Positions 1 through 3,662 of a stretch of DNA of 64,000 nucleotides are shown piece after piece. A program made the translations under genes and the position numbers. The stretch comes from Candidatus Methanomethylicia archaeon. Its GTDB lineage: Archaea > Thermoproteota > Methanomethylicia > CALHIW01. The notes under the pieces were generated by a model. The model saw only the letters and a program-made list of their open reading frames with translations. It was not told the origin of the DNA and searched no databases. The stretch is taken from positions 1 to 64,000 of the forward strand of contig JAWBQF010000009.1 in NCBI GenBank assembly GCA_038845975.1, read 5' to 3'. The stretch's first letter is position 1. Each line of letters starts with the position of its first letter.

Positions 1-221
1 CTAGAATTAGTGAAGAAAATAATGCATTAGGATAGAACTAAGCTATTCGATAACTATATACAATTATGAAGGATAAATGCGATAGTGAGCACGTATTAAT
101 ACTTATGAAGCCAATAGTATACTTACTAAACAAGACATGGATTAATAAAAAGATAAAGCTAAGAACTCATAGAAACACAAACTAAAATAGAGGTAATAAA
201 CATGCTTAAGTCAACAAAGCC
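1..221 (+). mobile_element. 3' end of a degenerate IS6-like element (truncated by window start)
   Basis: Ends in catgcttaagtcaacaaagcc and aligns by eye with the reverse complement of the first ~220 bp of the copies at 20982 and 34170, including the DRTKLFDNY-coding stretch. Confidence 0.85.
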
Positions 222-228
222 TACAAGT

Positions 229-852
229 TTACATAATTTTTATTAATCCTTTCTCCTGCATTGTTTTAAGAACCTCCTTTAATAAATCTTCACTAATCGA
301 AAATTCATCTGCACATTTTCGTAAATTTAATACACCTTTATGTATAACTAAGTAATTCAATATTCTCTCTTCAAGTAAATCTGATAAGTGTTTTGAAGCA
401 ATTTTAAGTTTACTCTCAATGTTTTCTACATGTTTTCTCAAGTATCTTATTTCCTCATCCTTTATGGAGATCATGGCTCTAGTTTTCTTTATTTCCTCCT
501 CAAGGTTAATTCTTATTGTCCTTTCTTCATTTAATTGTTTTTCAATATCTGACGTTTTTAAACGTATCTCATTAAATTTTACTAACATGCTTTCAACCTC
601 ATTAAGTTTTAACTGTAATCCTCTAGATTTCTCTTTCTCCTTTTCCAGCTCCCTTACAAGTTCATTGTAGTCTTTTTTAATTTTCTCTAACTCCTCTCCT
701 TTTCTCTTCTCTTCTTTAAGCATTTTCTCTAACTCTTTTATTCTATCTTGCTGATATGTTAGTGAATCTAGAAGTTCTGTAATAATGTTCACATGTTTAA
801 TCTTTTCTCGGATAATATATGAAAAACCTTTAAGTAACGTGGTAAGCTTCAT
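229..852 (-). CDS. Coiled-coil protein with C-terminal winged helix (CdvB/ESCRT-III-like C-terminus)
   Basis: Long heptad E/K-rich body; C-terminus ILNYLVIHKGVLNLRKCADEFSISEDLLKEVLKTMQEKGLIKI has a winged-helix pattern; divergent from a CdvA-like gene. Confidence 0.6.
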   Translation of the reverse strand: MKLTTLLKGFSYIIREKIKHVNIITELLDSLTYQQDRIKELEKMLKEEKRKGEELEKIKKDYNELVRELEKEKEKSRGLQLKLNEVESMLVKFNEIRLKTSDIEKQLNEERTIRINLEEEIKKTRAMISIKDEEIRYLRKHVENIESKLKIASKHLSDLLEERILNYLVIHKGVLNLRKCADEFSISEDLLKEVLKTMQEKGLIKIM

Positions 853-928
853 AGGCTCCTCAGCTCATATTATGGATAAACCTTATAAATGTTCTTTAAT
901 AATATTGTCATAGTGAAGCTTAACTATT

Positions 929-943
929 TTATGTAATACATAA
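929..943. promoter_or_regulatory. Perfect 7-1-7 palindrome TTATGTA-A-TACATAA between divergent TATA boxes
   Basis: Seen directly; TTTATAAG boxes at 991-998 (+) and 889-882 (-) flank it. Confidence 0.5.
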
Positions 944-1029
944 TGATTACTTTAGACTCTATTTATTAATGATTCTTTAAGTAGAATAGTTTTATAAGAG
1001 TTATTGTAAATGATATGCTGGGTGAGTAA

Positions 1030-1500
1030 TTGACTGCACATTTATGGGTTAAAGATTTTGAAAAGCTTGTTGAAAGCATAAAAATGTCTAATAAGAGAAT
1101 GCAGGTTCTTGCAGAGCTTGTAAAATCTAAAAGAATATCCCAAGTTACGTTTGAATATCTAAGGAAAGGCTATGAATCAGAAGCAAGAAGCCTTGAAGAG
1201 AGGAGGAGGTCTCTTCTAGAGAGGTTAAAAACATATTTTGATGAAATAGATCAGCAAATAAAATCCCTTGAAGAACGTATTGTTAGTATTGAAACAAGAT
1301 ATGTTATAGGGGAAATAGATGAGGAATCTTATAAAAAACAAATAGAAGCATTACAAATAGCGTTGCAAGGAATGATTGAAGAATTAGAGTCAGTTAAAGG
1401 ATCTATAGCTATATTAGAAGTGTCTAGAGTTGAAACACAAATAGTTGTAGAGGAACAGGTAATTCCAGGGGAAAGAAGAGAAGAATTAGAAAAAATCTAA
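1030..1500 (+). CDS. CdvA-like coiled-coil protein (no N-terminal PRC barrel)
   Basis: Repeated CdvA-type motifs LAELVKSKRISQVTFEYL and IETRYVIGEIDEESYKK; SD GGTGA before TTG. Confidence 0.75.
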   Translation: MTAHLWVKDFEKLVESIKMSNKRMQVLAELVKSKRISQVTFEYLRKGYESEARSLEERRRSLLERLKTYFDEIDQQIKSLEERIVSIETRYVIGEIDEESYKKQIEALQIALQGMIEELESVKGSIAILEVSRVETQIVVEEQVIPGERREELEKI

Positions 1501-1758: not shown

Positions 1759-2505
1759 ATGACTGATGTTCAAATTATTGAATTAAAGAAAATTAATATA
1801 GATAGTCCTGTTATTGTGTGTGGATTTCCAGATGTCGGTCTTGTTGGTGCTTTATCAACTGCCCATATTATTCAACACTTGGATATGGATGAAGTAGGTT
1901 ACATTGATTCAGATACTCTTCCTCCCGTAATAGTTTTGCATAAAGGTGAAGTAAAAAACCCTCTAAGACTATATGCTAAAGATAAATTAATAGCTATACT
2001 ATCTGAAATTCCAATACCTCCTGAACTTATTAGACCTATAGCAAGGTCCATTATTGAATGGGCAAAAAAGAAAAATGCTAGCCTTATAGTATCTCTTGCA
2101 GGAATAGCTACACCTAATAGACTTGAAATCGATGAGCCAAAGGTATTTGTAGTATCGTCTAACGATGTAGCAAGAGGTATAGCTTCTAAGCTAAATCTTG
2201 AACCTCTAGAGGAAGGATTCATAGTAGGACCGTATGCTCTAATACTTAAAGAGGGGTTGCTGAAGTCCCTTTCTAATCTAATATTGCTAGCACAATGTTT
2301 TCAGCAGTATCCAGATCCTGGTGCAGCAGCTGCTGTACTTAAAATATTTAGTAAAGCATTAGGCTTACAGATTAATGTTGATTCATTAATTCAAGAAGCT
2401 GAAGAAATTAGAATTAAAACTAGAGAGCTTATGAGAAGAACCCAGAACATAATGAGGCAAATGCAGAAAACTGCTGAATATGAAGTGCCGTTAATGTATA
2501 GGTAG
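1759..2505 (+). CDS. Proteasome assembly chaperone family protein (PAC2/Pba)
   Basis: GFPDVGLVG, PLRLY, SEIP and YPDPGAAA motifs; C-terminal HbYX-like MYR. Confidence 0.88.
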   Translation: MTDVQIIELKKINIDSPVIVCGFPDVGLVGALSTAHIIQHLDMDEVGYIDSDTLPPVIVLHKGEVKNPLRLYAKDKLIAILSEIPIPPELIRPIARSIIEWAKKKNASLIVSLAGIATPNRLEIDEPKVFVVSSNDVARGIASKLNLEPLEEGFIVGPYALILKEGLLKSLSNLILLAQCFQQYPDPGAAAAVLKIFSKALGLQINVDSLIQEAEEIRIKTRELMRRTQNIMRQMQKTAEYEVPLMYR

Positions 2506-2514
2506 GTGACTTAA

Positions 2515-2952
2515 ATGGAGCGACGTCGAAGGTCAATATTTGAATACATTGATGAACTGCGCTCAAAATTCGAGGAAATATTTAATGAATTTGAAGAACA
2601 GTTTGAAAAGCCTATGTTGAATTTTGAAAAGAGATGCTTAGAACCACTAACAGAAATTAAAGAAACTCCTAGCGAGGTTATAGTTACGTTTGATCTTCCA
2701 TGCGTTAGAAAGGAAGATGTAAAACTACACGCTACGGAAAACATGCTAACTATTGAGGCATTAATGTATAGAAAGATTAAATTTGATAAGTTAAAAGCTA
2801 TATATCATGAAACCGAATTTCAATCATATCATAAAGCAGTTAGACTTCCATCATTGGTAGATCCTGAGGCTGCAAGAGCAAGATTCAAAAACGGAATACT
2901 TGAAGTTAGACTTCCAAAAAAATATAAAGCTTATAACATAAGAATAGATTAA
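2515..2952 (+). CDS. Small heat shock protein (Hsp20/alpha-crystallin)
   Basis: DLPCVRKEDV, ARFKNGILEVRLPK and C-terminal IRI motif; SD GGTGA. Confidence 0.9.
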   Translation: MERRRRSIFEYIDELRSKFEEIFNEFEEQFEKPMLNFEKRCLEPLTEIKETPSEVIVTFDLPCVRKEDVKLHATENMLTIEALMYRKIKFDKLKAIYHETEFQSYHKAVRLPSLVDPEAARARFKNGILEVRLPKKYKAYNIRID

Positions 2953-3020: not shown

Positions 3021-3662
3021 CTATTTAATTCCTTGCATTTTTAACTCACATAATTGATTATATTCACACATGTTGCATTCCCATTGTGGCCATCTTGGAG
3101 TTGATGGATTTCTAATTATTTCACGTATTTCATCATCAGTACATGAGTTATTTATATAATAAAACTTTACTCCATCACTTGCAAAGTACCATAATTCAGC
3201 GTCTCTTGCATCTAGAAGCCATAAGTATATACGTGCCTGTAATATGTGATGTTCAAATGGTGTGTTGACAACACTTCTAACGTTTTTTACTTCTATAATC
3301 CTTTTACAATTTTCATCATATAAATCTACTGAGCCAACAATTAAAAAATTCTTACTATTAATTCTAACTTTCTTTTCATTTCTCACATTGGCTTTCATAT
3401 TTGAAACATTTTCGAGAGCTAAATGAATTAGCTCTCCTCTAATTATATTAGGTTTTAATAGTTTTGACATGCTAATTTCTGGAAATAGTTTTGAATACCG
3501 CCTTTTACGTGAACATTCGCATAACTCATGTACGAATATAACTTCATATCCTTCATTTTCATAGTTTTTCCTATAACTATCTCTTTCATCAATGTACTTT
3601 TTTCTCATGGCATCAATAAGTTTTCTAAGTACTAGTTCACCCTGTAGAGATAAAGTATCCAT
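3021..3662 (-). CDS. Stand-alone Cas4-like Fe-S PD-(D/E)xK exonuclease
   Basis: N-terminal ELCECSRK, GELIH, D..IIEVK, QARIY, C-terminal CNMCEYNQLC. Confidence 0.82.
   Translation of the reverse strand: MDTLSLQGELVLRKLIDAMRKKYIDERDSYRKNYENEGYEVIFVHELCECSRKRRYSKLFPEISMSKLLKPNIIRGELIHLALENVSNMKANVRNEKKVRINSKNFLIVGSVDLYDENCKRIIEVKNVRSVVNTPFEHHILQARIYLWLLDARDAELWYFASDGVKFYYINNSCTDDEIREIIRNPSTPRWPQWECNMCEYNQLCELKMQGIK

Follow-up and report, generated by a model that had tools for sequence, protein, structure and literature searches.

A predicted CdvB-type winged-helix protein encoded head to head with a PRC-less CdvA paralog in a Methanomethylicia archaeon

A divergent gene pair at the start of contig C9

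We examined a window of 64,000 nucleotides at the start of contig C9 (JAWBQF010000009.1) of a metagenome-assembled genome from the archaeal class Methanomethylicia, which comprises 2.77 Mb in 76 contigs and is 93% complete with approximately 31% G+C. Near the beginning of the window, an open reading frame (ORF) for a 207-residue protein, here called ORF A, lies head to head with a gene for a 156-residue CdvA-like protein, the two being separated by a divergent spacer of 177 bp (Table 1). An earlier reading of the sequence alone (hereafter the sequence-only reading) had placed both genes in this layout, and the ORF list confirms its positions. ORF A begins with ATG, and the CdvA-like gene begins with TTG directly after an in-frame TAA and a Shine-Dalgarno-like hexamer, GGTGAG. 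The TTG start is credible because an in-frame stop precedes it and because the N-terminal residues are kept in a paralog on contig C3. In comparisons with orthologues, ORF A had a ratio of nonsynonymous to synonymous substitution (dN/dS) of 0.13-0.20 and the CdvA-like gene one of 0.22, and both are, as judged from these substitution patterns, genuine genes under purifying selection.

The samples used for comparison were 62 genomes of the class and 401 of the phylum. Among the genomes searched, the family to which this genome belongs (f1) consists only of this genome (G000) and a congener (G001). The loci most closely related to the window are L017, which is identical to it, L018, which is 78% identical, and L019 and L020, which are 71% identical.

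The C-terminal domain of ORF A

By profile comparison, we identified the C-terminal domain of ORF A as a CdvB-type winged helix that is homologous to the winged helix of CdvB and is not of the ordinary DNA-binding kind. The choice between these two was the one on which the sequence-only reading had staked itself, and CdvB was favoured over DNA-binding winged helix-turn-helix families by six-frame profile searches, by a profile search of the PDB and by hhalign. With hhalign, the ORF A family compared with 18 CdvB proteins gave a single match, which aligns ORF A residues 156-207 with the CdvB winged helix (probability 97.7%, E = 2.3e-12). A profile of the winged helix only, searched against all PDB sequences, ranked 2xvc_A first (E = 3.8e-6, 29.9 bits), followed by a NirD-like protein (3.5e-4), an Lrs14-like regulator (6.6e-4) and PdhR (8.7e-3); the 2xvc entry shows the winged helix of Saccharolobus CdvB together with a CdvA peptide.

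The same relationship was recovered in the opposite direction from genomes of the class and phylum. An ORF A family profile containing no CdvB (A5), run in six frames, matched 40 of the 62 class genomes at E <= 1e-4, and, once the orthologues of G000 and G001 are set aside, nearly all of these matches fell on the winged-helix part, within open frames of approximately 250-315 residues. All 28 of the ORFs extracted from them (235-293 residues from the first start) were CdvB by NF041008/NF041005, with E-values of 1e-22 to 1e-48; 13 further listed matches, two of which are the CdvB of G000 and G001, were left out of the 28. A profile built from short family members matched 126 of the 401 phylum genomes at E <= 1e-6, again on the winged-helix part except in four genomes, in frames of 126-346 residues, nearly all of them longer than 240, that were assessed by length alone. 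Moreover, CdvB was the best NCBIfam match for the winged helix of two family members, P0013 (E = 2.3e-6) and P0011.

Architecture and family of ORF A

The AlphaFold2 (AF2) model of ORF A, made with six orthologues (predicted local distance difference test 90.7, predicted template modelling score 0.38), consists of a single unbroken helix over residues 2-170 that is followed by two short helices and a 7-residue tail, with no helical hairpin, and the winged helix modelled alone gave three helices and a 7-residue tail. The middle of the protein had been read from the sequence as a continuous coiled coil and not an ESCRT-III hairpin, and in the model it is a continuous helix. We considered ORF A as an ESCRT-III protein and rejected this, given the single-helix model and the lack of any hhalign alignment before residue 156; the CdvB model NF041008 scored 19 bits on ORF A against a cut-off of 370. 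According to the predicted structure, ORF A is not an ESCRT-III, the core being absent. A proposed likeness of residues 23-40 to helix 1 of CdvB was likewise abandoned, as hhalign aligned residues 156-207 only and BLASTP returned E = 1.0 for the N-terminal stretch. The helical stalk drew weak matches to coiled-coil-type families only (SMC, Rad50, BRE1).

Residues 1-24 form the most hydrophobic stretch of ORF A, with a net charge of +4 and a moderate helical moment of 0.38-0.48. These properties go part of the way towards the amphipathic N-terminus of the sequence-only reading; the same pattern would also fit coiled-coil heptads. A motif in this region, K-H-x5-E-L-L-D-x-L, forms invariant columns in six ORF A orthologues and was also found, as a separate HMMER domain, in the short members P0013 (17.5 bits) and L050 (11.0 bits).

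Orthologues of ORF A are 64-82% identical to it (P0002, 65%). A word-based homology search returned very close relatives only (2 of 1104 candidates), and among 1.84 billion representatives a full HMMER search yielded just 13 proteins at E <= 0.001. These include short forms of 119-216 residues (P0010, P0011, P0013, P0015 and P0019) as well as P0014, which is CdvB by NCBIfam. The short forms of 119-144 residues keep the C-terminal domain with far less stalk than the 207-residue form. By comparison of these members, the small ORF A family combines a conserved cationic N-terminal head with a helical stalk that varies in length and with a winged helix of CdvB type, which ends at the first wing strand. 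Full-length members are limited, among the 401 phylum genomes, to G000, G001 and two genomes of family f29, G108 and G171. In the ESM Atlas the nearest look-alike was a 210-residue archaeal cluster, mostly Bathyarchaeota (score 0.90), which we take as a lead only. Another lead, the Pfam family 'Cmi2, C-terminal', came from weak matches of distant members and was dropped, having brought up only unrelated Cmi2 literature.

Two metagenomic proteins among the 13 show other settings of the domain. P0018 (88 residues) consists of a single membrane helix and a CdvB-type winged helix, and P0017 (763 residues) is a membrane protein with a CARDB domain, two winged-helix copies and several membrane helices.

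The PRC-less CdvA paralog

The 156-residue protein is, by its alignments, a CdvA paralog without the PRC barrel, because the alignments to CdvA begin only past that barrel. Pfam PF18822 (CdvA coiled-coil) matches residues 22-132 with 49.8 bits against a cut-off of 30, the NCBIfam CdvA model NF041007 is matched at positions 69-194 only, and BLASTP aligns it with residues 69-189 of the 223-residue CdvA of the same genome, after the PRC barrel (E = 5e-13). The PRC-less CdvA-like assignment made from the sequence alone is thus upheld, the Pfam match being above its cut-off and the alignment to the genome's own CdvA starting at residue 69. Because the PRC barrel, which makes lateral filament contacts in CdvA, is missing, the protein probably cannot form CdvA-type double filaments alone. 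Since CdvA without its PRC domain fails to polymerise in the account of a recent preprint (bioRxiv 10.1101/2025.09.15.676241), a soluble or capping form seems more likely than a filament.

Orthologues of the 156-residue protein are 73-95% identical to it, and a word-based homology search again returned very close relatives only (4 of 2231 candidates). A profile of the window's CdvA-like family scored 63 bits for PRC-less proteins of f29, whereas canonical CdvA of the class reached 28-39 bits, and by these scores the protein belongs to a widespread PRC-less CdvA-like subfamily, to which it is closer than to canonical CdvA. The f29 versions have 170-190 residues with long Glu-rich tails. Across the phylum, 181 of 401 genomes matched the CdvA-like profile at E <= 1e-8, and approximately 58 further genomes of the 401, by hand count, have strong matches (E <= 1.1e-24) that start at the first residues of the model. 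Such paralogs are widespread and have already been noted in print: Makarova et al. (2024, bioRxiv 10.1101/2024.02.06.579148) describe, for Bathyarchaeia, CdvA-like proteins that carry a Glu-rich tail and are encoded away from the cdv locus, e.g. KPV61682.1.

The tail of the window copy contains a strand-prone segment, V-E-T-Q-I-V-V-E-E, that is kept in five of five orthologues and resembles the C-termini of canonical class CdvA, which end in T/A-L-V-V-K/R-V-K-E. We regard this tail as a candidate E3B-like docking peptide. The nine-residue segment is deleted in a second PRC-less paralog of the same genome, which lies on contig C3 at approximately 84.4 kb (L002:1489-1914(+)), has 141 residues and is 67% identical to the window copy. 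This second paralog sits between TrpD-like and nucleotidyltransferase-like genes, and no winged-helix gene adjoins it.

PRC-less CdvA paralogs of two other lineages (L099:2201-2554 and L102:808-1173) adjoin a gene for a PadR-like small regulator and one for an ABC-type ATPase. Two further PRC-less CdvA-like matches, G080:C8:12690-13088 and G136:C15:19776-20162, contain one in-frame TGA each, and may be pseudogenes, sequencing errors or cases of recoding.

The Cdv inventory of the genome

The sequence-only reading had raised a canonical cdvABC set or ftsZ elsewhere in the genome, and the former was located: contig C1 carries a cdvB1/2-like gene, cdvA (with PRC), cdvB (with winged helix) and cdvC, all in one direction. 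FtsZ was not found in the genome at 93% completeness. The genome has five ESCRT-III matches; no CdvC/Vps4 or ESCRT-III match lies on the window's contig, in keeping with the earlier statement that the window holds no Vps4/CdvC gene. From this gene content, the genome is one that relies on Cdv division.

In addition to ORF A and CdvB, we identified a third CdvB-type winged helix in a 199-residue protein with one N-terminal membrane helix, encoded on contig C3 at approximately 142.4-143.0 kb (L049:4404-5003(+)). With the CdvB winged helix of this genus its domain shares 44-49% identity; the protein has no NCBIfam match, and no orthologue was found in the other 61 class genomes. In total, the genome encodes three CdvA-family proteins and three carriers of a CdvB-type winged helix.

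CdvB C-termini and CdvA across the class

The broken winged helix of CdvB binds the E3B motif of CdvA according to PMC12909875. ORF A ends 1-2 residues past the first wing strand, as does the CdvB of its own genome. Among the class CdvB genes compared (loci L021-L048), CdvB also stops at the first wing strand in family f5 (9/9) and in f7 (1/1), and canonical CdvA was found in 8 of 10 f5 genomes, in the one f7 genome and in the own genome. In f4, all 17 CdvB proteins have 11-24 extra residues and canonical CdvA was found in 0 of 32 genomes; in f9 the one CdvB has 9 extra residues and canonical CdvA was found in 0 of 1. The 9-24 additional residues of f4 and f9 look like a second wing strand, and loss of CdvA may have been followed by completion of the wing in cis. 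The families are related and few, so that this comparison gives a pattern and is no statistical test. The pattern fits the idea, published in PMC12909875, of a broken domain that is completed in trans by the E3B strand of CdvA, and ORF A would fall among the domains that need such a strand.

Spacer, flanking genes and feature coordinates

The features of the locus are collected in Table 1. In G001 and L018 both promoter-proximal blocks of the spacer are kept and its centre is variable, with a 66-bp insertion in L018. The TATA-like boxes and putative promoters were assigned by their likeness to the archaeal consensus. The sequence-only reading had proposed that the pair is co-regulated; a separate TATA-like box and ribosome-binding site, both conserved, precede each of the two genes, by which co-regulation is not shown.

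Table 1. Coordinates of the features at the ORF A locus, in positions of the window.
Feature	Position	Strand	Description and evidence
ORF A	229..852	-	207 residues; cationic N-terminal head, long single-helix stalk and predicted C-terminal CdvB-type broken winged helix; ORF list, orthologues, dN/dS, AF2
ORF A N-terminal head, residues 1-31	760..852	-	Motif K-H-x5-E-L-L-D-x-L; possibly an amphipathic or contact helix; 6 orthologues
ORF A helical stalk, residues 32-155	388..759	-	Length varies in the family; continuous helix in AF2
ORF A predicted CdvB-type winged helix, residues 156-207	232..387	-	Stops after the first wing strand; hhalign, PDB profile search, six-frame searches, AF2
Divergent spacer	853..1029	.	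Two separate putative core promoters; read from sequence
TATA-like box and GAGGAG	883..890 and 856..861	-	Assigned to ORF A
TATA-like box and GGTGAG	990..998 and 1021..1026	+	Assigned to the CdvA-like gene
PRC-less CdvA paralog	1030..1500	+	156 residues; PF18822, NF041007, BLASTP, orthologues, dN/dS
CdvA-like tail, residues 133-156	1426..1497	+	Short, acidic; strand-prone V-E-T-Q-I-V-V-E-E; candidate E3B-like docking peptide

Three independent assemblies (window positions 1-228, the end of L016 on G001 contig C46, and the end of L017) break approximately 10-230 bases past the ORF A stop, an indication that a repeat or a variable stretch follows ORF A in this lineage. L018 continues past ORF A into a gene for a 673-residue membrane or secreted protein. 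Downstream of the CdvA-like gene, the window encodes a PAC2-family proteasome assembly chaperone (1759-2505(+)), an Hsp20 protein (2515-2952(+)) and a PD-(D/E)XK/Cas4-like nuclease (3021-3662(-)); PAC2 and Hsp20 are also nearby in G001 and not in L018. CdvB is under proteasomal control in Sulfolobus, and given this, a proteasome factor near Cdv-related genes is a curiosity.

Discussion

We hypothesize that ORF A does not polymerise and serves as an adaptor, docking on the C-terminal strand of a CdvA-family protein, which would make the pair a plausible accessory of the division machinery; we hold this interpretation tentatively, at somewhat less than an even chance. A CdvA-family C-terminal tail would supply, in trans, the beta-strand that completes the broken winged helix of ORF A; the tail could be that of the neighbouring paralog, the E3B of canonical CdvA, or both. 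The stalk would keep the N-terminal head well apart from the docking site, where it could make a second contact, such as with the membrane or with another protein, so that ORF A might tether CdvA-family scaffolds, cross-link them or rival CdvB for access to them, and would act without being an ESCRT-III or a Vps4 substrate. Here we infer docking, the choice of CdvA-family partner, dimerisation of the stalk and the role of the head. Conservation of both ends of ORF A while the length of the stalk varies is as would be expected of a bridging adaptor. In Sulfolobus, a construct that keeps the CdvB winged helix without alpha5/MIM2 accumulates and blocks division, as reported in PMC12909875, and CdvA filaments are described in bioRxiv 10.1101/2025.09.15.676241 as not binding membranes in vitro, with tethering partners being postulated.

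Conservation of the gene pair bears directly on this hypothesis. The head-to-head pair is present in three of four close lineages, namely the window (with the identical L017), G001 and L018. Each of the four genomes in which the ORF A family is represented has a PRC-less CdvA paralog as well, which says little because only two independent lineages are involved and the subfamily is common.

Several observations weigh against the proposed adaptor. The pairing is confined to a shallow clade, being absent from L019/L020 and from both of the distant members, G108 and G171. L019 and L020 have the same flanking genes, with 243 bp where L018 has 1447 bp including the CdvA-like gene, and no CdvA-like ORF was found within the 11.5-12.3 kb of these loci that were examined. 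The ORF A homologue of G108 and of G171 is flanked by the genes for rpS6e and tRNA-splicing endonuclease, with the PRC-less CdvA paralog on another contig. A winged-helix partner is also no general companion of PRC-less CdvA paralogs, as no winged-helix ORF occurs within approximately 1.5 kb at any of 10 such loci of other lineages. The conserved two-gene module that had been expected from the sequence is therefore not what synteny returned, adjacency being found only in the closest relatives and lost in L019/L020, G108 and G171. The tail of the CdvA-like protein may be merely a short form of the unstructured Glu-rich tail of its subfamily, and the N-terminal amphipathic pattern of ORF A is equally compatible with coiled-coil heptads. 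A complex prediction with cut fragments of ORF A (150-207) and the CdvA-like protein (118-156), run without controls, scored 0.02 against a mark of 0.32 and counts neither for nor against docking.

The same observations on synteny count towards an alternative, which we consider unlikely, in which ORF A carries a DNA-binding winged helix on a long dimerising helix, as a nucleoid-associated, segregation or transcription factor, and its adjacency to a CdvA-like gene is a recent accident: the adjacency is shallow, the CdvA-like gene behaves as an indel between conserved flanks, and the distant members have unrelated neighbours. Structure searching, moreover, cannot tell a CdvB winged helix from DNA-binding ones as far as the predicted model goes. 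Foldseek placed 2xvc first (template modelling scores 0.70/0.73, root-mean-square deviation 1.4 A) at E = 0.19, with DeoR next at 0.20 and no match at E <= 0.001. Support for DNA binding also comes from weak, sub-threshold Pfam matches on ORF A to Rrf2 (15.8 bits, cut-off 30, E = 0.016) and GntR (14.5 bits, cut-off 27, E = 0.029), and from the NirD-like protein and Lrs14-like regulator at the second and third PDB ranks. On the other side, all Pfam DNA-binding families (GntR, Rrf2, HTH_24 and others) score under their cut-offs, the wing is truncated, and the winged-helix domain has a net charge of -1. Winged-helix regulators are many in each archaeal genome. The winged-helix matches in other genomes nevertheless lie on CdvB-length frames, and the 28 that were checked were all CdvB, with no winged-helix regulator among them.

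In a second alternative, ORF A would be ESCRT-II-like, its winged helix contacting an ESCRT-III protein (a CdvB paralog) rather than CdvA, in the way that Vps25 contacts Vps20. The CdvA-like hairpin would then correspond to the ESCRT-I steadiness box, and the pair to a minimal upstream module for vesicle formation and not for division. From euryarchaeal ESCRT loci, Makarova et al. (2024) describe stand-alone proteins with helical, coiled-coil and CdvB-like winged-helix parts (arCOG09748, arCOG11741). They also argue that the contact made by winged helices is in general with ESCRT-III, and they liken the CdvA hairpin to the steadiness box; the five ESCRT-III paralogs of this genome would offer such partners. 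We nonetheless consider this improbable, as ORF A is not near Vps4 or any ESCRT-III gene, the likeness to the two arCOGs is drawn from their published description, and the sole solved example of this type of winged helix, 2xvc, binds a CdvA peptide.

As a special case of the adaptor, ORF A might be a natural decoy on the E3B site of canonical CdvA that delays or gates CdvB recruitment as a cell-cycle brake, with the CdvA-like neighbour buffering ORF A, and we regard this as quite improbable: ORF A does have the winged helix without the ESCRT-III core, and the division block caused by the Sulfolobus fusion is blamed by its authors on CdvA-CdvB interference (PMC12909875), but a decoy would need neither the conserved N-terminal head nor the stalk of approximately 150 residues.

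Returning to ORF A as a docking adaptor, a broader form of the proposal treats the CdvB-type broken winged helix as a docking module for CdvA that archaea also place on proteins outside ESCRT-III. ORF A and the membrane-anchored 199-residue protein would then tether CdvA-family scaffolds at the membrane, or organise them there, without depending on ESCRT-III polymerisation. We put this forward as a speculation that is rather unlikely to hold.

The class Methanomethylicia is described in PMC9723716 as having CdvB and CdvC only. By the inventory given above, at least some lineages of the class have the full cdvABC set together with paralog expansions. In the literature searched, no account was found in which a TACK archaeon has a CdvB-type winged helix on a stand-alone protein, or in which such a protein is paired with a CdvA paralog; such families may be listed in the supplementary tables of Makarova et al. 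(2024), which lay outside that search. Two questions are raised as open in Sulfolobus by the sources cited here: what tethers CdvA to the membrane, given filaments that do not bind lipid in vitro (bioRxiv 10.1101/2025.09.15.676241), and whether the broken winged-helix interface also serves proteins beyond CdvA and CdvB (PMC12909875). The ORF A family, in which a stalk and head replace the ESCRT-III core beside a predicted CdvB docking domain, and its membrane-anchored relative are concrete candidates for both. If there is no docking, the locus is one more paralog pair in an uncultured archaeon.

Comparison with known systems

Residues 156-207 of ORF A are, by homology, a winged helix like that of CdvB (2xvc), located at the extreme C-terminus and with the wing cut at the same point. 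Unlike CdvB, ORF A has no ESCRT-III core and is predicted to form a single helix of 170 residues, and its gene lies outside the cdv operon. A MIM2 motif for Vps4 binding was not identified in ORF A either, though no search aimed at it was made. The 156-residue protein shares with CdvA the PF18822 coiled-coil domain and a strand-prone C-terminal tail; it differs in having no PRC barrel, in its position outside the cdvABC operon, and in a tail that is acidic and only putatively an E3B. In architecture and extra-operonic position it is the same as the PRC-less CdvA-like proteins of Bathyarchaeia (KPV61682.1 type), as these are described in print. Unlike other members of that subfamily, it has a short tail of 24 residues with the conserved V-E-T-Q-I-V-V-E-E segment, and its gene is head to head with a CdvB-type winged-helix gene, an arrangement absent from 10 of 10 other PRC-less loci.

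Published counterparts of ORF A in architecture are arCOG09748 and arCOG11741, in which, by description, a helical N-terminal part and a coiled coil are likewise combined with a CdvB-like C-terminal winged helix. Those proteins are reported as encoded beside Vps4 and ESCRT-III in Euryarchaeota, arCOG09748 with a central globular domain, whereas ORF A is found in a TACK lineage, away from cdvBC and adjoining a CdvA paralog.

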